A stretch of 64,000 nucleotides of DNA, from assembly GCA_000091205.1 (NCBI GenBank), contig AP006489.2; one strand, 5' to 3'. Within the stretch, counting starts at the first letter, position 1; each line of letters starts with the position of its first letter. The notes beneath the pieces were generated by a model. That model was given only the letters and a program-made list of their open reading frames with translations. It did not search any database and was not told the origin of the DNA. The position numbers were made by a program, and so were the translations under genes. Below are positions 236-60,200 of the stretch, piece after piece. The DNA is from Cyanidioschyzon merolae. Taxonomy: Eukaryota.

Positions 236-3200
236 ATGCCGCCACGTAAGCGCAGGACAACTGAGCTTGAACGTTTGGGCGTGCACCTCGAGGAAAGCGT
301 GTCGGACGCTGTACCCGTGCGACGTCAGGTGCGATCACGGACGACGGAACGTGTTCGCGGAGGCCGGCACGATGATGAAACAACGGAGCAGGTGCATTTG
401 ACGGGGTCAGACACATCGGATACACAGAAGCAGCCAAAGCCTATGCCAGTTCAGCAGAAGCAGCCCAGAGCTGCCGTATTGCAGACGCCGAAAGAAACGC
501 TTTCCGAGCAGCTTGATCGTGCGCTATCTCCGTTGCTCCCGTTTCTCTCTTGGCCTCTGCATGATTCGAAAGATTCTGAACTTGAAGATGCGCACTGGCA
601 AGCCCAGCTGGAAGCCGCTGCGACCCAAACTGAGCATTTCGTGGAAGAGCTGGGAAAAGATGCGTCCCATGAATCAGGAATTGACGCAGCACTCGCCCAG
701 GCGCTCTGGTGTCTCTATCTCGCGAGCGCTAGCTCTTTTGAAGCAGAACCCAAGCGCAGCGTCGTGACTTGGCCAGATGTCGCACGAACGCGGTGGACCC
801 AGCTCCTGCGGCGCCTTCTGCATCGGAACTTGCTTAGCAAGGCGGTTCTCGTGCGTTGGCTCCCGCCTGAGAGCTGGCAACAAACCGGTTTGGTGAGCGA
901 GCTCGACGAGCCGGCACAGTGGACGCGGTCAGTGCGGCGACTTCATACCCGAATACATTACACTCAACCAGTGTACCAGGTTTTCCGGGAACAGCCGCTA
1001 GGTTTTGCAAGTCTGCTCAGTGCTTTCACAATCTGGATGGAAAACGCAGATGCCTTTTCTACTGACACCAAACTAGACGCATCGAGCAACATGAAACCCG
1101 ATCACGCCCTAGATGCGATCGTTAACGAGCATCTATCGACTTTTCACATAGAAACAAACCGAGCATACGACTTGGGCATCCAAATGCTGATCGCTATCCA
1201 TGAATGGAAACTGCGGCAGCATCGAAAGGCTGCACTGCTCAACTCGGGGCCTGCGGCTGGCCCTGGAGCTGAACTGCCGCAGCCACGAACGCCAGAGGAG
1301 CAGCAGCAGCAGCAGCAACGGCACTCGCTGCCCGATTCCGGTGTCTGTATCCGTTGCCGGACGCTAGTCGAGATCGAACAGGCCTTGATCAACTGGCTAC
1401 GAGGTGTCCCGTCTCGTAACGCTGCGCAGCTCTTGGGGTTCCGGCTCCAGCAGCTGCAGTCCGCTGCGGCCTGTGTGACGTACCAAAAAGCGGTGCCCGA
1501 AGAGCGCCTACCGGAGGCAGTGTTTCTGGTGGCCGCACGTCTCATTCACGAGAGAATCGTCTCACTGGAACAGCTGTGGCCTCATGTGGTGAACGCGGAT
1601 TATGAGGACGCCGCCACCGTCGGAACTGACGCAACGCTAGCAACGAGTGGGCAGACATCGACAACCGCGTCGCCACCGCCAAAACGAAACACTGCTGCAG
1701 ATGCGCGTTCAGCGAGAGCAGCGCCCATAGACCCAGCGAGCGCTGTCCAAAGCAAGCCCTGGGATGAGCTGGGAGCCTTCATCACTGCCCAAACGAAAGC
1801 ACTTGCGCGCGTGCGCCTGGTTGAACGCGACTGCAGCAGAGAGCAGGCGTCAGCATCGGAGCGGGGTTCGCAGGCATCAGCGGCTACGGCCTCGCGCGAG
1901 ACAGACAACGCTACCAAAGCGGTCGACGCCGTCTACGATGCCCTGAGCATGCGAGGCATTCTTGCACCAATAGCTGGCGAACTTGCTCTCTTGGCTGCAC
2001 TGATCGACTATGATGAGTTGCATCTGGTCGAAACCTGGATCCAGCGTGTGTGGCTGGCAGACCTGACCGAGAACGCTACCCTTTGGCACTGCCGGCGGGA
2101 GCTTGTCTACGCAGCTGCTCCGCTTCGATATGCCCTGTTTGCCTACATCATGCGTCATATTAGTCAAGTTACGGGAAACGGATCCCGCGTCGTGATGGCG
2201 ACCGGCGCTGACGCTGCCGCGGCTGAGCCCAGCGACGAGAACAACCATGCCAACGACACCAGAGCACTGCTTCTTCGTGTTTGGCGCCTGCTCGGTGGTC
2301 ATCTCGTTCAGCGTCCGGAGCTTTTCAAGGCGATGTGGTCTATTGTGAGCAGTACGAGAGCAGTGAAGCGTGCTGATCCTGCTGTTGATGCGCATGAAGC
2401 ACAGGTAGATTCCACAGTATCCGCCTTCTGGGCGGGTGACGGAATTCTTCCTTGCTCGCCTCTACTTGCTGTGCTGTTCTCCCAGGGGAGCGCGGCGGTT
2501 CCAGGTTGGCTCTTCGGAGATGCTAACGCTGCACTTTCCTCGCTGCCCTATGCCTACCGTTATGCTTTGTACCTGAATGCCTGTGCGACCTGCGTGCGTC
2601 TTTCGAGCTCAGCTGAGCCACGTGCTTCCGTACTGATCCCGTTCTGGCATGCCCTGTACCGAAGCATGAGTCGACGTCTGCTACGTCGACTCGCCGGCGA
2701 TACGATTGGTTACATTGCCAAGTCGCTCGAGCCGATGCTCTACAGTGAACCGTGGGCTGTAGCGCGCATCATCCTGGACCAAGTTCAAAGCTACGATAAC
2801 CTCGTGGAGCCTGTTGTGGAGATGCTTATGTGGCTGTTGCGAGCTCGGACGGACCTCAGTTCCGCCTCAGACGGGGAGCGAGTGCATGCGCTCGCTTTCG
2901 CGCTCGATGTCTTCTTCGCGCTGTTCGTCGAGGAATTAGCGGGATCTGCACAGAACGGAACCCAAAGACCTCGCATTCGCTCTCAAGAAAGCGGTGGCAG
3001 TCTGGCGAGCTGGTTCCTCAACACCATTGAACTCGTTGTACAGCTCAGTCGGCGCATGGTAGAGCACCTTGCTGCACTTTTGCCGTCAAATGAGAACGAG
3101 ATCCATGGCTACGAAAGCGTCGATCCGGCGTTCACTCTGCAGCAAGTGCTGCAGGACTGCTGGCGTGCGCTCTTACAGCTGGCTGAAAGGCGCATCATCC

Positions 3201-5254
3201 GGGGTGATTACGCATTCTACGCGCTCATTCAGCGAGCCCTGGAATGCATGGGCGGCATTCAACCATGGGATGATGAGATGCTCAACAACAGTGGTCTAGA
3301 ATCGCTGGCAAGGCCAGCGATTGAGCAGCCAACAAACGCCGAGACATGGCGTTTCCTGCAGACGGTGTTTGAGCCAGAGACGGCAGACGCAAGCTCCCCT
3401 ACGCTTGCGCTGCTCGTGGCACTCGACGCTGCCAAACATGAGTTGCTCCAGGAACTCGCGGCTGGCAAGTGGCCGCTGCGGACGGCTACCGTGCTTCTAG
3501 ATGCCCTGCATGCGACTTTTCTCCAACTGGCCAGTTTCGGAGAGAGGCAGCGCGCGGCCTCGACAACGGTGACACAGTTGTCTAGTACAGAATCTGCATC
3601 GACCTGTTCCGCTGAACGTTCATCATCTGCACCGAGTCTGGGTCTCGAGAAAATCGGCGACTCACTTTGCATGGAAAGTTTCCTGTGCTTGTGTCGCATG
3701 TGGGGATACAGTCGTCCGTCGGCACCACTGGCCGAAACATCTCGAGTCGACGTGCTTGAGCGGCGGCTTGGCGTTATGATAGCTGAAGCCGACACTCACC
3801 ATCAAGATCGCTTGCGCAAAGCCGGGGTCGCGAGCTTTGCCGAGCTCGTCTCGCTTGAATGGCTTCACGCTTTCTGGCGCAATGAACAGCCGCCCGACGG
3901 CCCGAAGTCCTGCGCCTTGGGCACGCGACCGTTTGACGACATCGTCAACGCGGAGAACGACCCCGAGCAGCGGAATATGCGCATACAGATTGTTGCCGAG
4001 TTTCTCCTCGAGCGCTGCTTCCTGCCGTGGGTCCTGATGAAGCCAGCTGCCTACAACAGTGCCATTGCGTGGATAGAGTTGCTTGCGCAGGATCCAAATC
4101 CGACGCCCTTCAATGTGCTGCTCCTGCTTACACTTCTTTTCAAGACAGCTTTTCTGCAGATCGTGGGTATGACCCGCCTAGAGTGCATTCGCCTCGCTCG
4201 CTTCGTGCGTCAGGCGCTGCGTCTCACGGATCGATGGCTTCGATACGGACCCGATGCGTGGCAAAGATATCGCTGTTCCAGGGTGACTTTTCAGGGGCGT
4301 GGCGGTACTCCGTGTCAATGGGCGCAGTACGTCCTCTGGCACGGAATCATGCGCGAAAAGATGCTCAACACAGTCTGTGAAGCGCTGGAGAAGCTGCCCG
4401 AGTCGCTGGTTCACGATCCCTCAATGCAGGACGCTAACGCGGGGTCGCCGCTCCTGTCCACGACGACGGCAAGCGCACCAGGCCCCCAGGATGCGCCATC
4501 CCGAACCGATTCGTTGGAAGAGCACCGCCACATGACGCTGGGCAATATGTTGCGGGCGTTGAACGTTATGGTAGAAGAGTTCCCGTCGCGTAACCAGACT
4601 GCTTCTGAACGTATGGAAAAGGCACTAACCAAACTAATCGAGCACGAGCAGAACGCGACCGAGGATCAACAGCACACCGATATCCTGACGCTCGCAACAA
4701 GCTACCTGGGCCACCTCCGCAGTCGTCAGCGTTGCGCCGCGGCTCGCCAGCGGGCAACAGCGCCACCCGCAGCGAGCAGTGTACCGGCCACGTCCCGTAT
4801 GGGATCCAAGGAGCGCGCCACAAACGGCGCGCTCATCGAGAAAGCGTCGTCCAAGCACCTAGATGTGTCCACAGAGGCTGCGGCCGCTACGCATCAGCCG
4901 GACAGTCGTCACAAGACAGCGCCCGATCACCAAACCGGGGCGGCAGCGCAGCGGCGCTCTGACGAGACGCCCCAGCGCAACCCTGATGGGCGTCGTCCAC
5001 AGCGCGGAGCCCGCACATCGAGGCCTTCGAGGGTGCGGCATTGGCGCGGCAGCGGCGCCCAAGCGCGGAGTCGAGTCACCGCACTAGCGCTCGCGGGAAC
5101 CAGCTGGACCCAAAGGACGTATCACAGGCTCGTGCTGCTGCGTCGACGGCATCACAGCGTCCACACATGCGCCAAGCGCGGTCGCAACCTAGTGGAGCTC
5201 CTTACGACACCGCTGAAGACAGCAGTAGTTGGAAAGGCTCTCGGAGGACCCTAG
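236..5254 (+). CDS. THOC2: THO complex subunit 2-like protein (THOC2/Tho2 family), 1672 aa
   Basis: Uninterrupted ORF from ATG 236. Internal segments 'LPYAYRYALYLN...' and 'DQVQSYDNLVEPVVEMLMWL' resemble the conserved THOC2 core (compare human 'YQHRYRLYGQW' and 'QIQKYDNLITPVVDSLKYL'), and 'QYVLWHGIMREKM' resembles 'HVVHKWHYKLTKA'. The long basic, Ser/Arg/Ala-rich C-terminal tail is typical of Tho2. (CAG)7 at about 1296-1316 encodes a Q-run. Confidence 0.65.
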   Translation: MPPRKRRTTELERLGVHLEESVSDAVPVRRQVRSRTTERVRGGRHDDETTEQVHLTGSDTSDTQKQPKPMPVQQKQPRAAVLQTPKETLSEQLDRALSPLLPFLSWPLHDSKDSELEDAHWQAQLEAAATQTEHFVEELGKDASHESGIDAALAQALWCLYLASASSFEAEPKRSVVTWPDVARTRWTQLLRRLLHRNLLSKAVLVRWLPPESWQQTGLVSELDEPAQWTRSVRRLHTRIHYTQPVYQVFREQPLGFASLLSAFTIWMENADAFSTDTKLDASSNMKPDHALDAIVNEHLSTFHIETNRAYDLGIQMLIAIHEWKLRQHRKAALLNSGPAAGPGAELPQPRTPEEQQQQQQRHSLPDSGVCIRCRTLVEIEQALINWLRGVPSRNAAQLLGFRLQQLQSAAACVTYQKAVPEERLPEAVFLVAARLIHERIVSLEQLWPHVVNADYEDAATVGTDATLATSGQTSTTASPPPKRNTAADARSARAAPIDPASAVQSKPWDELGAFITAQTKALARVRLVERDCSREQASASERGSQASAATASRETDNATKAVDAVYDALSMRGILAPIAGELALLAALIDYDELHLVETWIQRVWLADLTENATLWHCRRELVYAAAPLRYALFAYIMRHISQVTGNGSRVVMATGADAAAAEPSDENNHANDTRALLLRVWRLLGGHLVQRPELFKAMWSIVSSTRAVKRADPAVDAHEAQVDSTVSAFWAGDGILPCSPLLAVLFSQGSAAVPGWLFGDANAALSSLPYAYRYALYLNACATCVRLSSSAEPRASVLIPFWHALYRSMSRRLLRRLAGDTIGYIAKSLEPMLYSEPWAVARIILDQVQSYDNLVEPVVEMLMWLLRARTDLSSASDGERVHALAFALDVFFALFVEELAGSAQNGTQRPRIRSQESGGSLASWFLNTIELVVQLSRRMVEHLAALLPSNENEIHGYESVDPAFTLQQVLQDCWRALLQLAERRIIRGDYAFYALIQRALECMGGIQPWDDEMLNNSGLESLARPAIEQPTNAETWRFLQTVFEPETADASSPTLALLVALDAAKHELLQELAAGKWPLRTATVLLDALHATFLQLASFGERQRAASTTVTQLSSTESASTCSAERSSSAPSLGLEKIGDSLCMESFLCLCRMWGYSRPSAPLAETSRVDVLERRLGVMIAEADTHHQDRLRKAGVASFAELVSLEWLHAFWRNEQPPDGPKSCALGTRPFDDIVNAENDPEQRNMRIQIVAEFLLERCFLPWVLMKPAAYNSAIAWIELLAQDPNPTPFNVLLLLTLLFKTAFLQIVGMTRLECIRLARFVRQALRLTDRWLRYGPDAWQRYRCSRVTFQGRGGTPCQWAQYVLWHGIMREKMLNTVCEALEKLPESLVHDPSMQDANAGSPLLSTTTASAPGPQDAPSRTDSLEEHRHMTLGNMLRALNVMVEEFPSRNQTASERMEKALTKLIEHEQNATEDQQHTDILTLATSYLGHLRSRQRCAAARQRATAPPAASSVPATSRMGSKERATNGALIEKASSKHLDVSTEAAAATHQPDSRHKTAPDHQTGAAAQRRSDETPQRNPDGRRPQRGARTSRPSRVRHWRGSGAQARSRVTALALAGTSWTQRTYHRLVLLRRRHHSVHTCAKRGRNLVELLTTPLKTAVVGKALGGP

Positions 5255-5427: not shown

Positions 5428-7345
5428 CACGTGTCGATGCACGCATGCACGCATGCATGCCACCAGGAAGCATCTGGAAGCGCATTGTTCAGCTGCATGT
5501 CAGTGATGCACATGCATAAACGGACGTATGCATACGTACGAACAGGAAGCATCTGGAAGCGCATTGTTCAGCTGCGTGTCAGTGATGCACGTGCATAAAC
5601 GGGCGTATGCATACGTACGAACAGGAAGCATCTGGAAGCGCATTGTTCAGCTGCGTGTCAGTGATGCACGTGCATAAACGGGCGTATGCATACGTACGAA
5701 CAGGAAGCATCTGGAAGCGCATTGTTCAGCTGCATGTCAGTGATGCACATGCATAAACGGACGTATGCATACGTACGAACAGGAAGCATCTGGAAGCGCA
5801 TTGTTCAGCTGCGTGTCAGTGATGCACATGCATAAACGGACGTATGCATACGTACGAACAGGAAGCATCTGGAAGCGCATTGTTCAGCTGCGTGTCAGTG
5901 ATGCACATGCATAAACGGACGTATGCATACGTACGAACAGGAAGCATCTGGAAGCGCATTGTTCAGCTGCGTGTCAGTGATGCACGTGCATAAACGGGCG
6001 TATGCATACGTACGAACAGGAAGCATCTGGAAGCGCATTGTTCAGCTGCGTGTCAGTGATGCACGTGCATAAACGGGCGTATGCATACGTACGAACAGGA
6101 AGCATCTGGAAGCGCATTGTTCAGCTGCGTGTCAGTGATGCACGTGCATAAACGGGCGTATGCATACGTACGAACAGGAAGCATCTGGAAGCGCATTGTT
6201 CAGCTGCGTGTCAGTGATGCACGTGCATAAACGGGCGTATGCATACGTACGAACAGGAAGCATCTGGAAGCGCATTGTTCAGCTGCATGTCAGTGATGCA
6301 CATGCATAAACGGACGTATGCATACGTACGAACAGGAAGCATCTGGAAGCGCATTGTTCAGCTGCGTGTCAGTGATGCACATGCATAAACGGACGTATGC
6401 ATACGTACGAACAGGAAGCATCTGGAAGCGCATTGTTCAGCTGCGTGTCAGTGATGCACATGCATAAACGGACGTATGCATACGTACGAACAGGAAGCAT
6501 CTGGAAGCGCATTGTTCAGCTGCGTGTCAGTGATGCACATGCATAAACGGGCGTATGCATACGTACGAACAGGAAGCATCTGGAAGCGCATTGTTCAGCT
6601 GCGTGTCAGTGATGCACATGCATAAACGGGCGTATGCATACGTACGAACAGGAAGCATCTGGAAGCGCATTGTTCAGCTGCGTGTCAGTGATGCACGTGC
6701 ATAAACGGGCGTATGCATACGTACGAACAGGAAGCATCTGGAAGCGCATTGTTCAGCTGCGTGTCAGTGATGCACGTGCATAAACGGGCGTATGCATACG
6801 TACGAACAGGAAGCATCTGGAAGCGCATTGTTCAGCTGCGTGTCAGTGATGCACGTGCATAAACGGGCGTATGCATACGTACGAACAGGAAGCATCTGGA
6901 AGCGCATTGTTCAGCTGCATGTCAGTGATGCACATGCATAAACGGACGTATGCATACGTACGAACAGGAAGCATCTGGAAGCGCATTGTTCAGCTGCGTG
7001 TCAGTGATGCACATGCATAAACGGACGTATGCATACGTACGAACAGGAAGCATCTGGAAGCGCATTGTTCAGCTGCGTGTCAGTGATGCACATGCATAAA
7101 CGGGCGTATGCATACGTACGAACAGGAAGCATCTGGAAGCGCATTGTTCAGCTGCATGTCAGTGATGCACATGCATAAACGGACGTATGCATACGTACGA
7201 ACAGGAAGCATCTGGAAGCGCATTGTTCAGCTGCGTGTCAGTGATGCACATGCATAAACGGACGTATGCATACGTACGACCAGGAAGCATCTGGAAGCGC
7301 ATTGTTCAGCTGCGTGTCAGTGATGCACATGCATAAACGGACGTC
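5428..7345. repeat. Minisatellite: about 24 tandem copies of a 79-bp unit in 4 variant types
   Basis: The period is 79 bp ('gaacagg' recurs at 5540, 5619 and so on). Unit: GAACAGGAAGCATCTGGAAGCGCATTGTTCAGCTGC[G/A]TGTCAGTGATGCAC[G/A]TGCATAAACGG[G/A]CGTATGCATACGTAC. The variant order is A B B A C C B B B B A C C D D B B B A C D A C C. The array lies between the convergent 3' ends of THOC2 and coatomer beta. Confidence 0.95.
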
Positions 7346-11355: not shown

Positions 11356-11439
11356 GGGATGGAATATTTTTGGTTTGACAAAGCGATTCCGTGTAGCCTG
11401 GATCCTAGATGGCGGAATAGATATCGGTATTCGGCAAAG

Positions 11440-11600
11440 CGTCTACCGTGCAGCGCTCTAGCTCCCAGTTCCATGACCCATACCTCCTCTCGGATATGCT
11501 GGTCGTTCCGTACGTTCTATCGTTTCTTGGCACTGCCGTTTGGGTTGTGTTCCGCGTGAGTACAACAACTGCCAGTGGATACACAGGTGTCGCTCTCCGC
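11440..11600 (-). repeat. Internal fragment of a SINE-like dispersed repeat family (copy e)
   Basis: 'cctctcggatatgctggtcgttccgtacgttctatcgt' aligns to the family core 'cttcatctcggatattctggtcgtttcgtacgccctatcgtgtg' seen at 17.4 kb and 60.4 kb. Confidence 0.6.
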
Positions 11601-17334: not shown

Positions 17335-17645
17335 CGATTTTTTTCATTGACAAAACGTTTACTTAGGCCAGCGCTCTCGAATTATACGCTTTTTTGTTTC
17401 TTTTTCTTTTCTTTTCCTACTTTTTTGTGTTTTTTCAGTGCGCGGTGAAGTATCCATCAAACACCCTACCTCCATGTTACATTACCTATACTTCGTCTCG
17501 GATATTCTGGTCGTTTCATACGTCCTATCGTGTGTGCCTAGAACCTGCCTTTCTGTATCCGCCTTTGCACCTGAACCGCTCGAGCAGATAGTTCGTAGAG
17601 CTAGAACAGCATTTCTATACCATAGAGGGCGTCGGCTCGAGGGGT
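17335..17645 (-). repeat. SINE-like retroposon copy (copy b); element sense on minus strand, A-rich tail at 17335
   Basis: Aligns along its length with the copy at 60262-60548. It ends 'agagggcgtcggctcgaggg' (17624-17643). It lies in the divergent GH36/GT4 intergenic region. Confidence 0.7.
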
Positions 17646-18507
17646 GCTTCACCCGACATAGAATCGGGTCTCGTCGTCGGTTTGTGCTCGGACAGTCCGC
17701 GAATGTAGGCTTGGCTTCGCTGCACGACACGCTGGAGAAACTTGCTGTTAGTATGAATCCTGGGAGCCGCCTCTCTCCTTCGTGATCATGCATGGAATGC
17801 GTCGTTGGTTGGCAACGCGGGTTTGTGCTTGACACCCACCAGTGGGTAGGCGCAGAAAGCGCACTGGGCCCGTGTGCGCATCCGATTCGCTGGACCTTAT
17901 GCCTAGAAGGTAGATGCACCGATCGATGAGACGAGCGTTCACGCGCCGTACGTCATTGCTCGACGGAGACGTGTAGCTGGAGTTGTGTGAACACCCCAGC
18001 ACGCCCAGGCGCCTCCGCTTCGAAAGGCTTACCGATCCTGTATACAAAAAATGAAAACAGCAAGTAAAGCATCCATTGGAACATGCATCTTCGCATAAAA
18101 TGTGTAGGAATCAGACACCATTGACGAAAGTCGTACTCGATCGCTCCCATCAACATTCCTCGACTGCTATTAATGGAGCTGGAGGGAACGAAGAGACGAC
18201 CGATTTCTAAGCCCGATATAAGACAGACGGATTCTAATCTGTTCATAAAAAAGCCAGCATATGCTCGTGTTTATCATAGTGGCACGAATTCAAAACATGA
18301 GCGCATTCGTGCGTTCCCCCTGAATAGAGACGCTCCATCGATATCTGACTAATGCGCATCGCGCGCGTTCCGCATTGCCAGGGCGCAGCTGAATGCACCA
18401 CGCTGAAAATCTGTGGTGGATACGAGAGGATACCGGGTAGGCGCGTCTGAATTCGGCATTTGTAGTTGTTGTGTGTTGCTGACTCTCGTCCAACGACTTC
18501 GTGCACC

Positions 18508-28244: not shown

Positions 28245-30494
28245 AGAGCAGTATGATCTAGTTTTGCGCTCGTGGGTATACCCTGGACATCGTGTAAGCG
28301 TTGCTCATCAGAAGAAGCGCGGGATATGCTGTTGGATTGTGCGGGATACCTGATTGTCGACATCGAGCGCGCTCTAGAAAGGTACGCTATGACCGGTCGT
28401 GTAACGCTCCTTCTCGCAATTGGCCAGGGGAGCTCCGGCGTATATCGCGTCGCTCATCCCAAATATATGTGACTGTTCACGATGATAGCCCATCATGGGG
28501 AACTTTTTATCCACCGCTCGGCCGTTCACTTGGAATCGAGCGTAAGATGCTGCTGTGCGTGATCTATTTGTGAGAAAGTTCCCGTGCATGTCCTAGTAAC
28601 TCTACAGCTGCTGGTGGTGCTTCAGGAACATGTTGGGTTAGGATTTGGCCGAACGAACGTTCGGAGAGGACGAAAATCGATAGCTTTATGGAAGAACTTT
28701 AAAGGATGAGAAGCGCATTTGAAACGATCGCGCGTTTCCGCCTTCTTGGTACAGCGATATGCTCACCTTGAGAAGAGATATCCACGGGTAGCTACGGCCA
28801 CATGCAAACAAGGGCGGCAACTCGACCAGTTTGCGCACGAGATCCTGGGCGCATGCCTTCACCGCATAAACTCATGCTTCACTTTCTAACACGCTCCTCT
28901 GACTTTTTTCCATGGTCTAAATCCACGATCCTAACCAGATTTCCTCTGGAGGCGCTCACGCCACAACGGAAAACGAAAGAGACCTCAGTGATTCCATTCT
29001 ATGGCTGTTCCATGAAATGACGCACTTGCCCACGATCGGAGACTCTGTCGAGGGAAACGCGAATTATACAAGGAGGGCACTCAAGGCCACGGTTTTCCAC
29101 GGCTGGCGTACACAATCCGGGACCCAAAAAGTGGAATGGCTGAGGTGGCTATGGGCAGTAGCCGCAAGCTCCCGAGCACCTGTAGATTCTTTTAGTCCTT
29201 CGACTCAACTTTGTTTCACCATTGATATATTGTATAGCAGGAGATCGAAATCTTTACGCAATATACCGTTTAGACAGCAGACGGATCGCATTTAGGATAT
29301 ATATGTTCCTTTACGAACAATGCAAGGAGGACTGCATTCCTTTTTCAGCTCAGTCATACCACAGTACTCCGATGGCCCAGGGACTCCGAAAGAAAGAATT
29401 ATGTGCGCTGCGCTCTAAAAAACTGCTACTGTCCGAGCGTGCTCGTAGACAATGGTAAAAAAATTGCCCGATAATCACCCCACGAAAAGCAAAAGTGGCG
29501 GTAGATGCACTAATAAGCGTCTTTGTTTCTCAACTGCCAGTTCATGTGATCCTGAAACACTGGGATACAGTCGCAATAAAAAGTCGAAGATCGCGCTCGG
29601 CAATTTTGCATAGACATCGCAACCACAGCTTTCCTGGTATTCAGCGATCGGTTTGAAGTAGAGGGACGTCGGTTTGGTTTTCAGTCGATTGAACTTGCTT
29701 CGAACGAAACAATCAGAGCGCCCTTGGGTATTCGAGGAGACAGGCACCCATTGTATGTACGATCGAACTCGAAGAGAAGAACAACATCATCCGTTCGAGC
29801 TGCAGTGGATTCATTCGGCAGCCTCAGTTTCGCTCATAGAGACGGCTCATAAAACAACGCCCAGTACTCGCTCGAATCATTGAAGACTTTTCCCTGACGT
29901 TTGGCGATGTGCTTCTATTGGACATCATGGCGCCCCATCATTCCCCTTGCGTTCGAGCTTTTTGCAGATTGTATTGAGGTAGGGCTGCTTTTCATTCTTC
30001 CATACGCTCCATGGTTTATCCCCATCGAAGGAGCGTTTTCTGTGGCAAAAAGTAATGATTGCTTCGCTGGGTGATTCCTTGAACCTTTGATCACGATGAC
30101 ACCGGAACACATCTCGTTTTTCTTCCACAAAAGCTTCACCCTTGGAAACGTCTTCATATAAGGGCTTGAAGGGAAGTTTTCATTTTCAAAAAGTAAAAAA
30201 TCCAAGGGAGAGCTGTGTACATGGAACTGGAGGATCCTGGAGGACCGGTGTCGCCGGTTGCACGAAAAACCCGCAAAGCAGAGCCAAGCAAACAGGAACA
30301 GGCGAAGACAAAGAAGGAAAGGCCGGAGGCCCAACGCCAGATGCTGCAAGAAAGCCGACTGTACGACGAGATGGTGGTGAAAGCCTGTCTTCCTAAGCAT
30401 ATCAAGGATCCCTAGAGGGAAAAGTTGCGAGAGGGTATCAGCAAAACGTGTCGACTCGTACTCCAAGAGTACCGTCAAGGCGTCGTCAGGACTG

Positions 30495-32501
30495 ATGCAT
30501 TTGGCGAGGGAGATGTACGAAGACGTGGCGCACATGGAAAAGGTCGAGGTTCCGGAAGAGGTTTTCGACAAGACGTTTATTCGTCACCTGATGCTTGGTA
30601 CAGAGGAAACGCGGAGGGAAACTGAGCTACTGCATGCCCTCCACGAAAACTTCGTGGAATTCCGCTTCGAGGGTACCCGATGCAGGGGTGACCGGGATAT
30701 TTACACATATGGGGCGATGAAGTACATCACGAACCTGAAGAACCATTTGACAGTGAACCTCGAACGTTACATGATACGCGCCTTGTTTGCACTCTACCCG
30801 GGCATCTGTCCCAAAGGAATATCAGCGATTATCAATGGCATCACGCACGATCGCAAGCTTGAAGATGACATCGAATTTGTCGACAAGAAGGCGTCAAACC
30901 AGAGCACGAATAAGGTGTCCGTCATCCGTGCGGATTTACAAGAGCACCGTGCAGTCATGGAGCTGCCGAATCCAACAGACAAGATATCAGAGTTGAGAAA
31001 AGATAAGGGAAGATACTATCGCCTCGTCCTGCTGTATTTCGTGGTTTTGGACCGAGAACTCGAACGCAAGGCACAGGTGAAGCTGAGTGGGGGAAAATGA
31101 AGAGTGGGAGAGACGGAAGGCTTTCCATATGGGGAAGCGCTTCTACGTCGTTCTAATGTGCACCATCAAGTCACATTTTGTGACTATCGACTCCGCAGTC
31201 ATTCATGGCATCATGAAGGAGATCAGTCCGGAGTTCGATGTTAGCAGGGAGGAATTCTCCGGTGAAAACCGGGAGACGTTCTGGAAGAACATCTTCGATT
31301 TCAAACGTCTGAGGGTGAGCAAACAAAAGGTACTCACTGGGATGATCGAAACCGATGGAGTAGTCATGTGTGTACACTATCGGCGGTTGAAGAAAGATCG
31401 TCCAATCCCCGCCTCGGCGAACCATGAAGATGAGAAGGAGGCGGATCCTGCGAAGCAGGAAGCGGAGGATAACGACTTTGTTGTTGACGTGACGAAGCAT
31501 GAAGATGAGATGGAAGCGGGTCGTGCGACGCAGGAGGTGGAGGATAACGACTCTGTCGTTGGCGCAACGAAGCATGAAGAAAACAAAGAGGAGGATCCTA
31601 CGACACAGAAAGTGCAGGATAACGACTTTGTCGTTGGCACGGCGAAGGATGAAGATGAGAAGGAGGCGGGTCCTGCGACGCAGAGAGTGCATGCGAACGA
31701 CTTTGTCGTTGGCGCGGACCCCGGAAACACGAATATCATCACCATCCCTGCTCCCAAGCGTGCGGAATATGGTACTGATGGCAACTTATGTCAGAAAGAC
31801 ATGCGACTTTCGAGGTTCTCGAGAGCGAGATACTCTCGAGAATCCAGTATAATGAAAGCAAGGAAGAAAATCGAGACGTGGAATGCTAGACTGAAGGAGT
31901 ACCTGGAAGTTTTGAGCGAGGTGACGAGCCGAGGAGCGGACTTTAAAGCTTTTCGGAAATTTATGAAAGTTCGCGTTGCTCATTGAGATGCACTGTGTGA
32001 GGAGTATACAAAGCCGGGTGGGCTCTTCTGCGAATGAACTTGTATTGCCGGAAGCAGCGCGCATTCGCGAACTTTTTCAATGAGTTGAGCGCCCTGAAAG
32101 AGGATGAAAGTCAGAGGCTTGTAATAGCGTACGGAGCAGGGCGCTGGATGACCCAAAAAGGTACTACACCAGCTCCAACGACAAGAACGTACAAAGAGTG
32201 TGCACGGCGTTTTGTCACAGTACCTGTAGATGAGTTCCGAATATCGTATACACACCATGAACTGGGACGTACACTTCAAAGGGTCGAGATGGAAAAGTGC
32301 CAGGGGAGTCCTGAAGACATAGCAAAGTACGGACCGCTGCCGGAGGTGCAAATGGAGAGGAGGACAAAAGTGCGAGGGCTACTCGCATTCGTAAGTACAA
32401 CCAACGACGGCAAGAAACGTATGGAGTTTGTGAACCGAGACTTTAACGCCGGCATCAATATCAGGAGATGCGCGGTGATGGAGAAAAGGCCTCCACAGTA
32501 G
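30495..32501 (+). CDS. Fanzor/TnpB-like RuvC endonuclease, about 650 aa, split across three frames (introns or frameshifts); possibly a pseudogene
   Basis: ORF A is 30495-31100, ORF B is 31087-31986 and ORF C is 32034-32501. RuvC-I is '[17 protein letters not shown]' (about 31705-31740). A TnpB-type pre-zinc-finger segment reads '[22 protein letters not shown]' (compare TnpB 'LeYKa..G..vv.Vdp.yTSq.C'). RuvC-III is '[13 protein letters not shown]' (about 32436-32470; compare 'D.NAA.NI'). The A/B junction falls at a G5A4 homopolymer and needs a 1-nt frame change. The B/C junction needs a length change congruent to 2 mod 3. Confidence 0.65.
31420..31727 (+). repeat. Four in-frame tandem copies of a 75-nt (25-aa) unit ending in the RuvC-I motif
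   Basis: '[25 protein letters not shown] / [25 protein letters not shown] / [25 protein letters not shown] / [28 protein letters not shown]'. The nucleotide units are about 80% identical. Confidence 0.85.
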
Positions 32502-32760
32502 ACAAGAGAGAATTTTAAAGGACAACTGCTCAAAGTGGAACTATATGAGAAACAATTGGAACCAGTCGTAAGTGGCCGATCCAAGAAGACGGGGAGGCGT
32601 CTGCACGTCAGTTCGAGACTGCTTGTCTAGGGCGGGTTTATCGCCACCACTGTGCACCGCTGGCGGCGGTCGACTTTTGGAAGGTATTCGCTAGAGGTGC
32701 TGTTTATAGGGATCAAGTCTCTGAAGCGAGATGCTTTCACGACCTCTGCCGCTCCAGACG
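32400..32760 (+). ncRNA. Predicted position of the Fanzor omega-RNA (overlapping the 3' end of the nuclease ORF and extending downstream); not directly recognisable
   Basis: By analogy with TnpB/Fanzor loci, where the guide RNA scaffold overlaps the 3' end of the nuclease ORF. Local inverted repeats are present, for example 'tagacaag' at 32502 paired with 'cttgtcta' at about 32625. No conserved motif was verified. Confidence 0.2.
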
Positions 32761-32802: not shown

Positions 32803-35157
32803 ATGAAGGCGCTGCACGTGGCGGAGAAGCCTTCAGTTGCACGTCAAGCCGCAGCTGTGCTTGGACATGGTCGCGCGGAGCGAAAATGCAGCTGTTCTCC
32901 ATATCACCCCAACTGGTTCTGGTCTGGTGTGTTCGAGTTCAGCGCCAAAGACGGGACGCGCTTCGTGGTCGACGAGCAGGTCTTTACATCTGTGAGCGGT
33001 CACGTCGAGGAGCTAGACTTCGTCACACCTTATCACAAGTGGAGTGCCTGCGAACCAGTGGACATATTTCGGCGGGACCTGGTGCAAACTCGCCGCTTTG
33101 TGCCGGAGAGGAACGCAAAGGTGGCGCAGAATCTGGGGCAACTGGCCCGTACGTGCCAGTACCTTGTGCTCTGGCTTGATGGCGACTCTGAAGGCGAGGC
33201 CATATCAGATGAGGTGCAGCGAATTTGTAAGCTGCCTCCTAGCATGGTGTTCCGTGCCCGTTTTTCGGCAGTAACGCCCAGGGACCTTTTCCGAGCCTGC
33301 GCTACGCTTGACCGGGTGAATGCGAAAGTTGTCGAGGCCGTATGGATTCGTCAGGAAATCGACTTGCGTGCTGGGGCCGCATTCACCAGGTGGCTAACGC
33401 GGCACATACAGCGCCATTACCCACAAGCGCTCATTTGCACATCTGCAATTGTCGCCTCGCGGCGTAAGGGTGCCTCTGGAACTTCCAACTTAGGGCGGAA
33501 CGAACGCCTGCAGGGGAGCGGTGTTTCTTCTGCTGACGCTGCTGTGGTGAGCTACGGACCCTGTCAGTTTCCGACACTCGGCCTTGTCGTGGATCGCTAC
33601 CGCGAGCGGCGCGAATTTCAAACGAAGCCCTTCTGGACGATTCGCATGCGTATTCAGACGACTGGCGATCGAGCCAGCGGGAATCAAGTCGAGCTTTGCT
33701 GGGACCGGGCACGCATCTTCGACCGCTTTATTGCATATGTCCTTTTTCAGAGGCTCCACGATGCGGTACGGTTGCCAGGCGCCTTACGCATGATCGCTTG
33801 TGAGAAGCAACCAGCTCACCGAAGTAGACCGTTGCCGTTATCGACGGTAGAGCTCCAGAAAGAAGCCTCCAGAAAACTCAAGCTATCTTCAGCGCAGACT
33901 ATGGAAATAGCCGAGCAACTCTATCAACAGGGCTATATATCTTACCCCCGAACGGAGACGGATCGATTCCCAACAGACGATCGTGGTATATCGAACCTCA
34001 AAGCACTCATTACCCTGCAATCTGAAGACCAGAGATGGTCATTGCTAGCAAAGCGGCTGCTCGAAACCGACGACGTATCACGTGGTGGGTTCAAAGCACC
34101 GCGCGCGGGCAGCCATGATGACCACGCGCATCCGCCTATTCATCCTACCAGCGCTGCACCGCCCGGCACCCTGAGCGGCGATGCCGCCCGACTCTATGAG
34201 TATATCGCTCGCAGATTCCTGGCTTCATGCTCTGCGGATGCCAGTGGCGAACGCACCATCTGGCGTTTCGCCGTCTTTTCGGGTGCATCGGAGGCGCGTA
34301 CTGAAGCACCACAGGAGACGTGCATGTTTCCCGCGAACACGGTCTTAGAGACATTCACGAGCAAGGGTCTTCGTATCACGAATCTGGGCTATTTGGAAGT
34401 TTTTTCTCCATATGAGAAGTGGTTGGAAAGCACTTTGCCAGGCGATTTGGAATGCGGTGCTGCGGCTCCAGAGCATTTTTGGCTGACGGAGCTGCGTCTT
34501 GAGGAATCGATAACAGAGCCCCCCGCGCTGCTCTCTGAGGCGGATCTCATCGCTGCTATGGATCGCCACGGCATCGGCACCGACGCGACGATTGCAGAGC
34601 ACATTAAGAAAATCCAGGAACGTCATTATGTGGTGAAACAAATCATAGCGGAGGAGCGGCGCCGCCAGTCTCATCGAGCCGGAACACAGGTGCACGATGC
34701 CGCCGCGAACAGCAGCGACGAGTGCGATGCCTCACAAGTGACGTCTCGGGCACACTCTGCGACGAGAACGCGGGAACGTTGTGGGCTCGTCTCAAGGAGC
34801 AGCGTACAGCGTTTCGTGCCTATGAAACTGGGCCAAGCTCTCGTCGAAGCATTTGAAAGCTGTCACGTGCATTTAGCGCGCCCCAACCTTCGTGCTGAGC
34901 AGGAAAGGCGCCAAAAACTTGTCGCCAAAGGAGAAGCCTCTGGGTCAGAGGCACTGGATGAACTCCTAACGTCTTTTGCGGAAGCGTTCCGACGCCTCGT
35001 GCTCGAACGCAGCAAGTTTGATGCGACGTTCTGCAAGTTCTTTCCGAAAGCAGAGCCTCCTTCGCTTTTGCGTGCTCCTGCCGCTCTAGAACTCACTCAG
35101 AGCAGCGTAAGACGTTCTTGTGTTGTGCCCACGGACGAATCGAATGCGAACGAATAA
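32803..35157 (+). CDS. TOP3: DNA topoisomerase III (type IA)
   Basis: The TOPRIM N-terminus reads 'MKALHVAEKPSVARQAAAVLGHG' and 'LVLWLDGDSEGEAISDEV'. The catalytic-tyrosine signature is 'GYISYPRTETDRFP'. 784 aa with a low-complexity C-terminal tail; ATG at 32803. Confidence 0.92.
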   Translation: MKALHVAEKPSVARQAAAVLGHGRAERKCSCSPYHPNWFWSGVFEFSAKDGTRFVVDEQVFTSVSGHVEELDFVTPYHKWSACEPVDIFRRDLVQTRRFVPERNAKVAQNLGQLARTCQYLVLWLDGDSEGEAISDEVQRICKLPPSMVFRARFSAVTPRDLFRACATLDRVNAKVVEAVWIRQEIDLRAGAAFTRWLTRHIQRHYPQALICTSAIVASRRKGASGTSNLGRNERLQGSGVSSADAAVVSYGPCQFPTLGLVVDRYRERREFQTKPFWTIRMRIQTTGDRASGNQVELCWDRARIFDRFIAYVLFQRLHDAVRLPGALRMIACEKQPAHRSRPLPLSTVELQKEASRKLKLSSAQTMEIAEQLYQQGYISYPRTETDRFPTDDRGISNLKALITLQSEDQRWSLLAKRLLETDDVSRGGFKAPRAGSHDDHAHPPIHPTSAAPPGTLSGDAARLYEYIARRFLASCSADASGERTIWRFAVFSGASEARTEAPQETCMFPANTVLETFTSKGLRITNLGYLEVFSPYEKWLESTLPGDLECGAAAPEHFWLTELRLEESITEPPALLSEADLIAAMDRHGIGTDATIAEHIKKIQERHYVVKQIIAEERRRQSHRAGTQVHDAAANSSDECDASQVTSRAHSATRTRERCGLVSRSSVQRFVPMKLGQALVEAFESCHVHLARPNLRAEQERRQKLVAKGEASGSEALDELLTSFAEAFRRLVLERSKFDATFCKFFPKAEPPSLLRAPAALELTQSSVRRSCVVPTDESNANE

Positions 35158-54799: not shown

Positions 54800-56833
54800 T
54801 CAAAAGGCGAGCTCGAAACTCATGACCAACTACCTCCGCACTACGGTGAGGATGCTCTTCCGATGCAAATCAGCAGCAGTTTCTTATTCGAAGAGTTTTA
54901 GTCTAGGCTGCAGATTTGAACGGAACAGCCAGTGACCTGTTAGCGCTCTCAGCAGCACCCTGTATTCAACGCTACAACGCCGCTATGATTGCGCGATGCA
55001 AAGAACGAACCAAAGCACTTCAATGTGATCGTGCTCATGAAAAAATGCTTTGGCAGGGCGCCCTGCATCGGAACAGAAATCATTCTTTCTCTTTAATATA
55101 TAAAAGCGAGGCATGAAGAGGGCAACTACCAAGGTTTCACATGACGACATTGATGCTTTGTAACATTGAATACATTATAGAAAAACTTCTGCGCTTTTCA
55201 CACCGTTTGACTGATGATAAAAACATAATACGAGATATCTTTCACCGAAGAAGCCTTTGCAGATAGAAAACTCGCAGATAAACAAAATCGGAAGCCGGGT
55301 AACGATACAGCAAGCAGTAATATTCACTGTGCAATAACCGAGATTTTAAAATCACTAGTCCTTCGACACAGATCCCGACGGACTAGGCGTGACGGACTCA
55401 CACATCTCTGAATTTGAGTGGAAATTCGATCTGAGCGACAATTCTACATCAGCGACAATGCCGTCAGGACTACCAAAACCCCTCGTAGGCAAACTCAACC
55501 GCAAGTTTGAATTCGACAAGGTCCGCGCAATTTACCACAGCATGCAAGCCATTAAGGAAAGCTGGGCATTTACAAAGCAGGTCGCTTGTGATTTAATGAT
55601 ATAGGATTAAAACAGACCATCAAAAAACTTTTGTTACGAAAGCGGTAGCCCACTGAAGAAGTGAGTTACATCAGGGTGCATCCCGCTCCTCAGCTCGCGC
55701 GCTCTCGACGCAGAACACACTCAGAAATATCACAAAAAATAGAACACGATTACCCTTCACCAACGACCCAGGAAAACCATTCCTAGTGTATCCATATGCC
55801 TCTCCAGCTTTCCCGGACTCTGAACCATGCCATGCAAGTGCCCTGCTCCAGGCGGGATTTCAGCGCCGCCCCTCTTGGCCACTGAATTGGGTCTATCGCA
55901 AGTCCTCGCCATTTCAGCACGATGCCCACAACGGGCACTGCAATACTCCCACCAAAGCTCGCTCGACACAAGCTCGCTGTACGCTCCAGGACCAGCAAAC
56001 ATTTCGGGTTGTTGATTGGCCCGTCCGGCTCGGCGGAGAACGTGCTTCCGTGCACTGTTGCTGGCGATATCACACTATGACGAGCTTCTCACTTTCGATT
56101 GCCTCGCAATGCGACGTTCGGTCAGCTTGCCGCCCAAGATCTCGTGGCATCCGACTCTGTTTCAATCTCGCCTTCTCCAGATGCTGCAGCCTACGCCTTC
56201 GCACGTGATGGATCTATGCCGTCCAAAGCGCATCGATGTAAATCGTACTAATCGGTTCCTGCACGCGTTGTACGCTCCCGTCGAAGGAGAGGGAGAGCAG
56301 CCCGCACGCGCCCCAGCACCTCCAGCGCCATAGACTAACACAAAACCACGCGACTTGTCGGCCATTTACTTTTCTAACTCACTGAACTAGTATATTCTCA
56401 CGATTCCTGCATATACAAATCGGTAGATGTTGGCGACCCCAGCGCTGTTTCAAGTACCCGGCCAATGTTCGTTCGTATACGACATTTGGACACTCAGGCA
56501 CTCTCTGAATCAAGCGCACGGGGGATCCGTTTCTGGTCAATCCGGCGCGCAGAACGTCGGGATGGGCCCTGAAGCCGTCATTCCGCGTGCCGGTACGCCT
56601 CGTTGAGTCGACCATGCCCGGCTCGCGATAATGCCGAGCCCCGGAGAAGCTGAGTTGCTCCATCTGATTGCCGCACAGCTGTTTGCATGCGTCCTTTCAA
56701 TTTAGGGGCACGGCGGAAGCTACGGCGTTCTTCATACAGGGATCCACGCCCGCCACAAAGACTGTCCCGTAAGCTACCATGCACGATTGAGAACGAGTCT
56801 TGTTGCTCGGCTCAGCTCAGGGTTTCACAACGT

Positions 56834-58985
56834 GCATGCAGCCTGGTATCCCGTAGGTCTCCGTCGCCCCTGTAAAATTCTTTCCATTTCCTCCCCGTAA
56901 CGAAGCAACCCTGAGGGAGCTCCGGCAATGCTCCATACGAAGCTGATCGAAAGCTTCGTAATTACCGGAAGAGAGGAGGCATAGCTCGCCGCGGAAACTA
57001 TCTAGTATGAAACGAATATGCCTACGGTAACATGGCAGGCCTTGATATGAAATATGGGAGTACTTCGAACGGACGCTTGAGGAGTCTTAGGCGCTCGCAC
57101 ACAGTGAGGGAGTTTGCGTTGCTATGGAGGGCTTCCTCGAAGAAAGCGCAGTAGCTCGTATGCAAGGAAGCTAGGCATCACATTTCAACCATCCCCTCTA
57201 TGGGTCGTGCGTCGGTCCGACCCCGCGAGCAATACGATGAGCCTGCGCCCCCACAGTCGGCTCTCGCGATCGTTGCGTTTTCCCTTCTGCGCTTGCTACG
57301 AACTCCATCTCGTCCGCCCAGAGCAGCTCGCCTTTTAACTATAAAGATACCGCTAGAAACTCATCCATCAGTCCCCTCTTTCCTGGGTCAGTGAATTGAG
57401 GGTACATCGCCCACAGGGTGCGGTTCATGAAGCGCTCGAGAGTGGCCGCATATTTTCTTCGGTTTTTGACGATAGTTTGATACTTTTTGGCACAGCGCGG
57501 TAGCTTTCTTTCGTTGCCCACATACAGCGACGACGCGTCAAAGCATTCTGCGATTCATGTGTGTAGCCGCTCGTCCTACAATCAGGCCGTGCTGCATATT
57601 GCGTTCAGAGCATCAGTTGCGCGTCGTCGCGCGAAGTCTTCATCGAGGAACTCCAGAAGAACGTGGACACCATGGAGTCCTATGTCGGAACTTCCGCAGA
57701 CCGTTGCTTGACCAGGCGGCTCAAGACGAGAGAGGCTAGGCGCGCATTATTCGGGTAAGGAGCTTCTCGAGCCTTCACGACGTCCCGGATTTCGCGTTTT
57801 GGAAGAGCCTCCCCGTTGAAGTGTGTTTGTCGGGAGACCTTGGCAACGGTTTCAGACTGATATTTCCGCTCCGACAGCTTTCCTTCCTGTACCACTTCGT
57901 CCCGTTTTCTGAAGGCTCTTCCGCTTCCTTGTCTGGTGGTCCCTCGCCCTTCTCCTTGACTTGGCGCGGCGGCAGAACTGTTGCCGCTATATTCCATATC
58001 CAGGTTTTTCGTCGGGATTCAGACAAACTAGGTGGATTCTAGCACTGCCATTCGCCCGCTCGATGGATCTATGTATCTAATTCGCTCCGAGTACACTTTC
58101 GTCAGTGCTTCCGTGGCAAGCACAAGCATGAGCCGAGGCGCACCTCCTCGCTCGCTCACACGAACCGCAAGAGATGCAACAAAGCAGTTCATGGCGAAGA
58201 AAACAAAGAGGGACTTGTCGAACAACGATCTCATGGGCGCGAGCCACTTCTCTATTGATCCGTGAGCGTAAGAATGGAATTTGGCACCGGAGAAGAAACA
58301 GTCGACTGGATTAAACCATGGAGAATGGGCTAGTGCGAAGAGCAGCTCCACGAAAATCACAGATGCGTACCCCTTGACCACCTTTGGGTTATGGAAATCG
58401 AGATCGTCTCAGAACAGGACAGAAAAATGTGGAAAGAAGGCACCACAAGTGCTTCGACGAAGAAAGAGCTTTTGAGTGATCCAGTCCATTTGGGGATATG
58501 TGGGCGATCGCACGACTGCATTTCCGCATGGGTTGGTGTTGTCGCCATTCTCGCTTGTCTCATTACTAGGAAGATGGTCCTCGCTGGGGGCGCGCTTTTT
58601 CGCTCGTCTATCCGAGTCTCTTCATAACCAACCGTATCAACGGCGCGTAAATTTCCCGTCCTGTGGCTTCATTGAAAGTTCTGCTCTGAACACATATGCA
58701 GCGGAAGGAATTGAGGAGAAAGTCGAGCAGATTAATTTCTATATCATCTGACTCGGGTGCACGGCGTTCAGGATAGGGGCTACGAGAAGGGTGGTTCATC
58801 CACCAGCTGACGGCAGGGCGACTTGCAGTATACATGTAGAGACATTTTGGCCAGCTTCCAGTACCACCACAAAGGCTATCCGCGAATTTTTTGCTCAGTT
58901 TAAGGGATACATCTTTGTGTTGAATTTCTGCGAAAAAATCAAAAAAATACAAAATGACGCGCTGGTGTAGGGGTGCAGGATATCA
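56834..58985. repeat. Inverted-repeat arm 1 (at least 2.15 kb; the partner runs off the window end)
   Basis: The reverse complement of 61848-64000 matches 56834-58985 essentially exactly. ORF-track pairs such as 58032-58265(+) and 62568-62801(-) give identical peptides. No RT, integrase or DDE transposase motifs were seen in the arm ORFs. Confidence 0.9.
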
Positions 58986-59334: not shown

Positions 59335-59555
59335 GGCACCCGAGTCAGATGATATAGAAATTAATCTGCTCGACTTTCTCCTCAATTCCTTCCGCTGCAT
59401 ATGTGTTCGGAGCAGAACTTTCAATGAAGCCACAGGACGGGAAATTTACGCGCCGTTGATACGGATGGTTATGAAGAGACTCGGATAGACGATCGAAAAA
59501 GCGCGCCCTCAGCGAGGACCATCTTCCTAGTACTGAGACAAGCGAGAACGATCAC
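59335..59555. repeat. About 220-bp diverged partial copy (about 95% identical) of the inner IR segment, in arm-2 orientation
   Basis: 'cacccgagtcagatgatatagaaattaatctgctcgactttctcctcaattcc...' appears at 59338 and at 62078, with a handful of substitutions between them. Confidence 0.85.
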
Positions 59556-59879
59556 AAAATCAGCCTTAGTGTTCTGAAAATACAGATACTAACCATCAAA
59601 TAGAAATTCGATATCAATTTTCTTCCTACTTTACGGTAACCATTGAAAGGGGAAAGCATTTGCTTATTCTCAAAAGTTCGGTTTCCAGGCTGAAAGTCGC
59701 ACGAGCCTTCCGAGCCTGCCAAGCTTTCGCTCCACATGCCTCTTTATAGCCTGGTGCTCTAGCAAGGCTTGAACAGCTCGTCCGCTGTGCGGGATAGTCT
59801 GGGACTTCGCGTGCTCAGGCTGTGTCTGGGACTCGCTCTCGTCGCGATGCTACTCTGACACATTGCTTCGCGCTTTTGC

Positions 59880-60200
59880 TTGCAGTGCGCCTGTCTGCGC
59901 GGATTGCAGGCTCTCAGCAATATAATGAATCCCGATCCCGAGTCGGCGAAAAACGCAGCGAGCTTACGTCTTCGGTGGTACGGCAAAGCCGTCCTGTCTG
60001 CGTGCTGCATTCGCACCTGCGGGATAGGCGCTAATGCTGGTGCCCACGATAGACTCGGCGCAAGATAGAACGTTCGAAACGACCAGTATGTCCGAGGGGA
60101 AGGATGGGTAATAGAACTTGAAGATAAGATTACGCATGACTGACGCTTTCCCGAATGCCAATATCGACCCCGCAGTCTGGGATCCATGGTCTACACAAAC
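59880..60200 (+). repeat. Older, diverged SINE-like family copy (copy d), element sense on plus strand
   Basis: '...cgtcctgtctgcgtgctgcattcgcacctgcgggataggcgctaatgctggtg...cgaaacgaccagtatgtccgag...' aligns at about 70-75% to the reverse complement of copy c. It lies tail-to-tail with copy c. Confidence 0.6.

Follow-up and report, generated by a model that had tools for sequence, protein, structure and literature searches.

A variable acidic coding minisatellite before the RuvC-I motif of CMe-1A Fanzor1 genes, carried by a decayed copy in Cyanidioschyzon merolae

What does it mean when a nuclease gene carries, in frame, several tandem copies of the very segment that leads into its first catalytic motif? 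The question is raised by a stretch of 64,000 nucleotides (nt) from Cyanidioschyzon merolae (contig AP006489.2 of assembly GCA_000091205.1; hereafter the window), in which a copy of the Fanzor1 transposon family CMe-1A contains four tandem units of 25 amino acids (aa) that run into its RuvC-I motif. An earlier note, made from the letters of the window, had proposed either replication slippage tolerated in a disordered linker or selection on a repetitive acidic insert. Our analysis favours the former and, with a probability of about 75%, we regard the array as an unstable coding minisatellite tolerated in a disordered linker between the WED and RuvC domains of a transposon gene and carried here by a dead copy.

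Tandem Repeats Finder located the array at 31418-31716, with a period of 75 nt, 4.0 copies, 79% matches, 0% indels and a score of 374, in good agreement with the four units of about 80% identity, the coordinates and the peptides given in the earlier note. A single further array of the window, an unrelated 79-nt satellite, reached a score of 100 or more. The unit corresponds to 25 codons, and its head-to-tail arrangement without indels is that of a coding minisatellite or variable number tandem repeat (VNTR). As the earlier note had recognised, the duplicated segment lies just N-terminal to, and includes, the first RuvC-I strand, and the catalytic DPG was kept by the last copy only, 'DPGNT' continuing from unit 4 alone. 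The three extra units (75 aa) contain 25 aspartate plus glutamate and 7 lysine plus arginine residues, resulting in a net charge of -18, and the sequence right before unit 1, which reads ...SANHEDEKE..., is 12 nt shorter than in the CMe-1A consensus. All the units are in frame, as claimed, but this is no evidence of selection, since the gain or loss of 75 nt keeps the frame automatically.

Orthologous alleles of the window locus were located via the neighbouring topoisomerase III gene. The locus was collinear in six independent metagenome assemblies, with 98.7-99.6% identity over 8 kb, and the same four units, with 1-2 single-nucleotide polymorphisms in the array, were present in all of them (L082-L087), so that no variation in unit number was found among these six alleles. 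The earlier note had taken single-copy relatives as grounds for dismissing the array; the family consensus does have a single unit, yet the array is real in six assemblies.

The gene that contains the array is a Fanzor gene, as proposed, and belongs to Fanzor1, but the supposed Fanzor open reading frame (ORF) is only a 299-aa fragment of a gene broken by frameshifts and stops. Bao & Jurka (2013, Mob DNA 4:12, PMC3627910) described one Fanzor1 family in C. merolae, CMe-1A, which comprises ~150 copies that are ~80% identical to a ~3-kb consensus, and has neither terminal inverted repeats nor an assigned class. When the 3169-bp CMe-1A consensus (PMC3627910, supplement file 2) was aligned to the window, the copy found there (Table 1) lacked the first 875 bp of the consensus. 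It agrees with the published family in its multi-copy status and consensus identity, and differs from it in being 5'-truncated and broken. The three RuvC motifs (D/E/D) are all still encoded, spread over different frames by the frameshifts, and the nuclease reading frame is not intact, being interrupted by three frameshifts and two to three premature stops. The stop codon at 31984-31986 is TGG in the orthologous alleles L082 and L084, and neither the 299-aa nor the 285-aa open fragment had an exact match among recorded sequences. The window copy is a dead, decayed pseudogene and, contrary to what had been considered in the earlier note, nothing can be under current selection here.

Assignment to Fanzor1 required a deep profile. 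No Pfam family was assigned to the three ORF fragments or to full-length relatives, the only precomputed label on the relatives was DUF8286, and a 12-sequence profile had no match in the PDB. A profile of 128 relatives matched the solved chains of PpFz1 (E=2.1e-17), SpuFz1 (E=3.8e-10) and GtFz1 (E=0.22), aligning the RuvC-I Asp motif with the DPG/DPN of PpFz1 and SpuFz1 and the RuvC-II motif VDEFRISY with DEFRTS of PpFz1 and DEYKTS of SpuFz1. The fold was modelled on P0001, a four-unit relative used as a stand-in for the broken window copy, with the 128-relative alignment. The resulting AlphaFold2 model had a mean predicted local distance difference test (pLDDT) of 84.6 and a predicted template modelling (pTM) score of 0.82; a model built on a shallow alignment of near-identical paralogs (pLDDT 46, pTM 0.29) was not used. 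The RuvC-I aspartate of P0001, D484, was invariant in the 12-sequence alignment and nearly invariant in the 128 relatives. In a Foldseek comparison of P0001 with the PDB the top seven matches were all Fanzor1 (E 2.6e-16 to 1.4e-13, target-normalised TM <=0.71), with Cas12 proteins coming next, and the assignment to Fanzor1 is sound. The solved Fanzor1 proteins (SpuFz1 8GKH and 9CEU-9CEZ; PpFz1 9CF0-9CF3; GtFz1 9CER-9CET) have the same fold, WED-REC-RuvC order and D/E/D motifs and, as in CMe-1, a non-conserved linker of ~40-45 aa leading from the 'TDG' WED strand to the 'DPG/DPN' RuvC-I strand. They differ from P0001 in that sequence identity is only 12-15% and their linkers have no tandem repeats. 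Moreover, RNA-guided cleavage has been demonstrated for the solved proteins, and no assay of any CMe-1 protein was found in the literature searched.

The same model showed how the units are predicted to be disposed. The extra units of P0001 (residues 386-465) formed the only long segment with pLDDT <50, with block means of 28-49 and no secondary structure, whereas the last unit provided a helix (465-477) and a strand (478-484) that is the first RuvC beta strand and ends at the catalytic Asp. The disorder of the insert that the earlier note had asked about was therefore borne out by pLDDT, and a charge-hydropathy analysis also placed it well inside the disordered side (H=0.34 vs a boundary of 0.50); a folded control segment fell slightly on the disordered side as well, and pLDDT is the stronger of the two arguments.

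Is the repeat peculiar to the window? The published CMe-1 consensus protein (734 aa) has one unit, and the repeat is not mentioned in the passages of Bao & Jurka 2013 (PMC3627910) consulted. Related stretches were found in metagenomes (382 in all), and the 80 loci studied were those with the highest tblastn similarity to a four-unit query, which biases the distribution of unit numbers among them. Several of the samples that yielded these loci (e.g. Ga0078972, Ga0207433) also hold the window locus, at 98.7-99.6% identity and with an identical topoisomerase protein; they therefore contain C. merolae, and the 80 loci were for practical purposes treated as its paralogs within that genome. Among close family members, proteins carried 1 to 6 units and, at the DNA level, the distance between the anchors flanking the array changed among the related loci in steps of 75 nt. 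Among 63 distinct arrays, that of the window included, we counted 4 with one unit, 7 with two, 14 with three, 21 with four, 12 with five and 5 with six. Hence the comparison of paralogs proposed in the earlier note did reveal a variable repeat number: the published consensus has one unit and the window copy four, and within CMe-1A, whose sister copies carry 1-6, the array is the rule, not an oddity. More distant relatives had single short linkers (P0074, 46% identity; P0060 and P0061, 31-34%), which, together with the consensus, indicates that one unit is the ancestral state. The linker from 'TDG' to 'DPG' varied widely in length and sequence among the 128 relatives, with a median of 36 aa.

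The array is a moderately unstable minisatellite. L038 and L040, with five and three units respectively, represent the same locus, their flanks being 99.1-99.4% identical over ~5 kb on each side, and in four arrays adjacent units differed by just 2-3 of 75 nt and must therefore be recent duplications. Among pairs with at least 98% flank identity the unit number was the same in 27 and different in 1, and among those with 90-95% identity it was the same in 6 and different in 3. The site itself is naturally permissive. P0163, a metagenomic protein of 789 aa from the same Fanzor1 clade, has at the WED-to-RuvC-I junction an unrelated G/S/N/E-rich linker of 105 aa; the expansion occupies the same junction as the window array, but the insert is a low-complexity tract rather than a repeated RuvC-I strand. 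The junction may therefore be a hot spot at which insertions recur.

The window array was inherited and not generated after the insertion of the copy. Its units differ from each other by 13-18 of 75 nt (17-24%), whereas the distance to the same-position unit of the paralog L065 is just 5 nt for unit 1 and 8 nt for unit 2, and the nearest matches of unit 4 are the terminal units of other copies. Besides, the four-unit layout and the identical 12-nt deletion upstream of unit 1 are common to several paralogs. Since units in the same position are closer to those of a paralog than to each other, the array must have come from a source element that already had several units.

Constraint on the array was estimated by Nei-Gojobori (NG86) sums over 148 copy pairs of equal array length, pairs which are non-independent and were taken without a phylogeny. 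The ratio of nonsynonymous to synonymous divergence (dN/dS) was 1.12 in the array, 0.51 in the 300 nt upstream (WED) and 0.24 in the 300 nt downstream (RuvC), with proportions of synonymous differences (pS) of 0.158, 0.211 and 0.307, respectively; among the window's own units dN/dS was 0.92. In non-terminal units dN/dS rose from 0.85 (codons 1-15) through 1.31 in the 'DNDFVV' part (codons 16-22) to 3.5 (codons 23-25). At D19, F20, G23 and D25 the proportion of nonsynonymous differences (pN) was 0.01-0.06 in the last unit and 0.18-0.39 in the others, where F was seen to drift to L and G to D, so constraint as a RuvC strand is confined to the last unit. Among pairs sharing three- or four-unit arrays the RuvC flank still had a dN/dS of 0.24-0.25, which indicates that array-bearing lineages were under purifying selection and that multi-unit proteins were tolerated.

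We propose that in an ancestor of one CMe-1A lineage a 75-bp segment would have been duplicated head to tail; running as far as the catalytic Asp codon, this segment encodes the final part of the WED-to-RuvC linker, then a short helix and the initial beta strand of RuvC. Slippage during replication, or unequal exchange, would later have added and removed units, each event preserving the frame because the unit is exactly 25 codons. In the multi-unit proteins, which may well have been active nucleases, the RuvC active site would be built only by the unit joined to 'PGNTNIIT...', and the upstream units would protrude where WED meets RuvC as a disordered acidic loop, each contributing a net charge of about -6. 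Such proteins would have been tolerated while their lineages were under selection, the extra units being free of amino-acid constraint, and the window copy would have inherited its four-unit array and then decayed through 5' truncation, three frameshifts and stops. The idea of slippage tolerated in a disordered linker, already put forward in the earlier note, is supported by an array dN/dS of ~1 as compared to 0.24-0.51 in the flanks, by a strand constraint confined to the last unit, and by the low-confidence coil of the extra units.

Several observations speak against tolerance as the whole explanation. The pS of the array (0.158) is lower than that of its flanks (0.21-0.31), which is not what pure neutrality predicts and could be due to homogenisation, composition effects or a weak constraint at the nucleotide level. 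Net frameshifts were present in only 2 of 72 arrays as compared to 10-77% of 300-nt flank windows, values dominated by homopolymers and obtained from non-independent copies; 18-29 would have been expected, before considering the variation of homopolymer hot spots across the flank windows, and the shortage could hint at selection for an open frame but is not counted here as evidence of it. The acidic composition was kept in all the units. It should also be considered that none of the 72 distinct copies had a fully intact reading frame, so that no multi-unit protein is thereby shown to be functional, that P0001 (752 aa), the best multi-unit candidate, is disturbed at its N-terminus and 35 aa short at its C-terminus, and that the NG86 sums come from non-independent pairs and the unit numbers from a sample biased to the four-unit query. 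These same features (few frameshifts, low array pS and a net charge of about -6 in every unit), as well as the predominance of multi-unit arrays among the sampled copies and the purifying selection on the RuvC flank of array-bearing lineages (dN/dS 0.24), could be accommodated if the acidic repeat were a selected functional module, that is, an expandable negative loop near the RuvC site acting as a DNA mimic, autoinhibitor or interaction surface whose length would tune activity. We consider this unlikely, given that dN/dS is ~1 over the array and 0.85-1.3 in both halves of the non-terminal units, that there is no preferred unit number, copies carrying 1-6, and that the family consensus and all more distant relatives manage with a single short linker. 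In addition, the purine-rich codon neighbourhood alone might maintain the composition, and the sampling in which multi-unit arrays abound is biased toward the four-unit query. That the array is, more specifically, a length-tunable, DNA-mimicking or strand-swapping loop at the RuvC mouth that throttles the Fanzor1 nuclease seems to us very unlikely; if true, transposon lineages would be able to dial their self-inflicted DNA damage by gaining or losing 25-aa units. It is highly improbable that the upstream units are decoy first strands, whereby a copy of 'NDFVVG' would enter the RuvC sheet to give a dead conformer without the Asp, a built-in switch: the D-N-D-[FL]-V-V motif is recognisable in every unit, but the strand residues of non-terminal units are unconstrained (pN 0.18-0.39 vs 0.01-0.06; dN/dS 1.3-3.5 for codons 16-25), F to L and G to D changes are seen in these units, and AlphaFold2 leaves them as low-confidence coil.

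Two further explanations were considered. The array could have expanded in place after the insertion and death of the copy, as neutral minisatellite growth in junk DNA; the window copy is indeed a pseudogene, and the L038/L040 locus shows that three and five units can coexist at 99% flank identity. Nevertheless, the closeness of the window units to the same-position units of L065 (5 and 8 nt, against 13-18 among themselves), the layout and 12-nt deletion common to several paralogs and the four units found in all six alleles make expansion in place quite unlikely. Finally, a published family consensus with a single unit is what an array created by mis-joined or expanded reads would leave us to expect, but the chance of such an assembly artefact is practically negligible: the genome of C. 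merolae 10D is a finished assembly, a unit divergence of 17-24% is far too high for a read-level duplication, six independent assemblies agree on four units, and comparable arrays are present in dozens of paralogs.

Intragenic coding minisatellites with a variable number of units are well known, for instance in the repeats of yeast cell-wall adhesins and in mucin VNTRs, whose length variation has a known phenotypic effect. The CMe-1A array resembles them in its head-to-tail units of a multiple of three nucleotides, its variation among copies or alleles, its location at a disordered, low-complexity site and its weak residue constraint; it differs from them in belonging to a family of transposon-encoded RNA-guided nucleases and in duplicating a beta strand of the catalytic core. 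Although the element was already known, we did not find the variable array described in the literature searched: a known Fanzor1 family carries an acidic repeat of one to six units that was hidden by the published single-unit consensus. The WED-to-RuvC-I junction has tolerated at least 125 extra residues while the adjoining RuvC flank was under purifying selection, which may interest those who insert domains into compact RNA-guided nucleases, and the array offers a convenient marker for CMe-1A sub-families or alleles in natural Cyanidioschyzon populations. Host biology is unchanged, the element being catalogued and the window copy dead, and no major question is opened or settled.

Table 1. Coordinates of the repeat units, of the landmarks of the CMe-1A copy and of neighbouring genes (positions in the window).
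Feature	Position	Strand	Basis
CYME_CMG046C, 1672-aa ORF	236-5254		Exact match to C. merolae 10D protein
5'-truncated CMe-1A copy	30179-32684	+	Consensus 876-3167 of 3169, 87% (84-88%) identity
N-terminal remnant of the Fanzor1 frame, lysine-rich (MELEDPGGPVSP...)	30221-30415	+	Translation, consensus alignment
Premature TAG (consensus TAC, codon 67)	30413-30415	+	Consensus alignment
Frameshift, +1 nt insertion	30442	+	Consensus alignment; frame switch in three-frame translation
Open fragment of 299 aa, longest open part of the broken gene, containing the array	31087-31986	+	
Frameshift, -2 nt deletion in or adjoining the consensus A7 run (consensus GAGGAAAAAAATG, window GGGGGAAAATG)	31091-31094 (31093)	+	Consensus alignment
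Last WED-domain beta hairpin before the linker	31345-31380	+	P0001 model strands 350-358 and 362-370; TDG motif nearly invariant in 128 relatives
Repeat unit 1	31420-31494	+	Tandem Repeats Finder, in-frame translation
Repeat unit 2	31495-31569	+	Tandem Repeats Finder, in-frame translation
Repeat unit 3	31570-31644	+	Tandem Repeats Finder, in-frame translation
Repeat unit 4, original unit	31645-31719	+	In-frame translation, P0001 model, per-codon pN
RuvC-I catalytic Asp codon GAC (GAD/PGNT)	31717-31719	+	Last codon of unit 4
Premature TGA (consensus TGG, codon 520), closing the 299-aa fragment	31984-31986	+	Consensus alignment
Frameshift, -1 nt deletion in the consensus C4 run (AAGCCCCGG to AAGCCGGG)	32012-32016 (32014)	+	Consensus alignment
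RuvC-II glutamate motif VDEFRISY (Glu codon 32232-32234)	32226-32249	+	E-F-R nearly invariant in 128 relatives
RuvC-III aspartate motif (Asp codon 32439-32441)	32433-32468	+	Translation, 128-relative set, solved-chain alignment
TAG (consensus TTG, codon 692)	32499-32501	+	Consensus alignment
Conserved 3' tail, from the TAG to the degenerate terminal hairpin (~32625-32684)	32499-32684	+	Consensus alignment
Topoisomerase III ORF	32803-35154		Exact match to C. merolae 10D protein

The neighbouring proteins are exact matches to the C. merolae 10D entries BAM79581.1 and BAM79574.1, and the window lies on chromosome 7. Two antisense ORFs that overlap the array (31171-31692 and 31377-31784, - strand) were rejected as genes; they probably stay open because the purine-rich codons of the repeat leave few stops on the complementary strand.

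Two of the lesions of the window copy recur elsewhere in the family. Consensus positions 1783 (the A7 run; 31093 in the window) and 2492 (the C4 run; 32014 in the window) were frameshift hot spots in 7 and 5 other copies, respectively, and it was probably recurrent homopolymer slippage, rather than shared descent, that killed many CMe-1A copies. Among the orthologous alleles, L084 and L086 had, relative to window positions 32121-32590, a 470-nt tract of the RuvC-II/III region with ~50 clustered differences (~11%), being ~99% identical elsewhere; this looks like a gene conversion tract copied ectopically from elsewhere in the CMe-1A family, or else like a chimera formed during metagenome assembly. 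More generally, C. merolae was present in the JGI datasets 3300005573, 3300027863, 3300050360-62 and 3300052694, in ENA ERZ27247228 and ERZ27247235 and in the Logan assembly of SRR6049666 (L082-L091), with 97.6-99.8% nucleotide identity to 10D across the region and an identical topoisomerase III protein. These metagenomes are a ready resource for the population genetics of the alga and its transposons.

The 3' tail of the element was conserved at 0.85-0.90 up to the end of the consensus. Its RNAalifold consensus was weak (-3.5 kcal/mol, 2 compensatory pairs), covariation gave no support to an omega-RNA structure there, and Rfam and tRNA scans of the window were empty; the tail might serve as an omega-RNA or as a transposon end. 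A long hairpin closes most CMe-1A copies, immediately ahead of the point where the copies cease to be similar (e.g. L030 1915-2271, L014 6166-6525). This hairpin exists in at least two sequence versions, ...GGCGTCGTTCGACTTTCGAACGGCGTT... and ...GGCGACAACGTTTTTCTTTTGAAAGACGTTTGCTGTTGC..., both of which pair. Its mean z against shuffled sequences was -1.9 (loci L001-L081), and it is degenerate in the window copy (~32625-32684). For a family published as lacking terminal inverted repeats, such a subterminal hairpin would help to trace the transposition mechanism or the omega-RNA.

Other repeats were found at a distance from the Fanzor1 copy. The 79-nt satellite lies at 5464-7344, directly downstream of CYME_CMG046C (23.8 copies, 98% matches, no indels, score 3573), and is much younger and more homogeneous than the Fanzor array. 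The segments 56833-58981 and 61852-64000 are inverted copies of each other (100% identity over at least 2149 nt) separated by 2870 nt; since the second arm reaches the end of the window, the repeat may be longer. An element of 213-230 nt also recurs at 58531-58760, 59336-59565 and 62073-62302. Weak tblastn similarity to the REC and RuvC parts of CMe-1 (27-31% identity, E ~1e-3) was detected at 56087-56386 (-), 57234-57491 (-) and 63342-63599 (+); these matches, partly inside the large inverted repeat, may represent a second, far more diverged Fanzor1-like relic. Lastly, four segments, at 11376-11523, 17465-17668, 59582-60191 (-) and 60375-60550, align to the CMe-1A consensus within its first ~630 bp only (74-81% identity), a portion that, according to Bao & Jurka 2013 (PMC3627910), is shared with a separate element, TE-N2_CMe.

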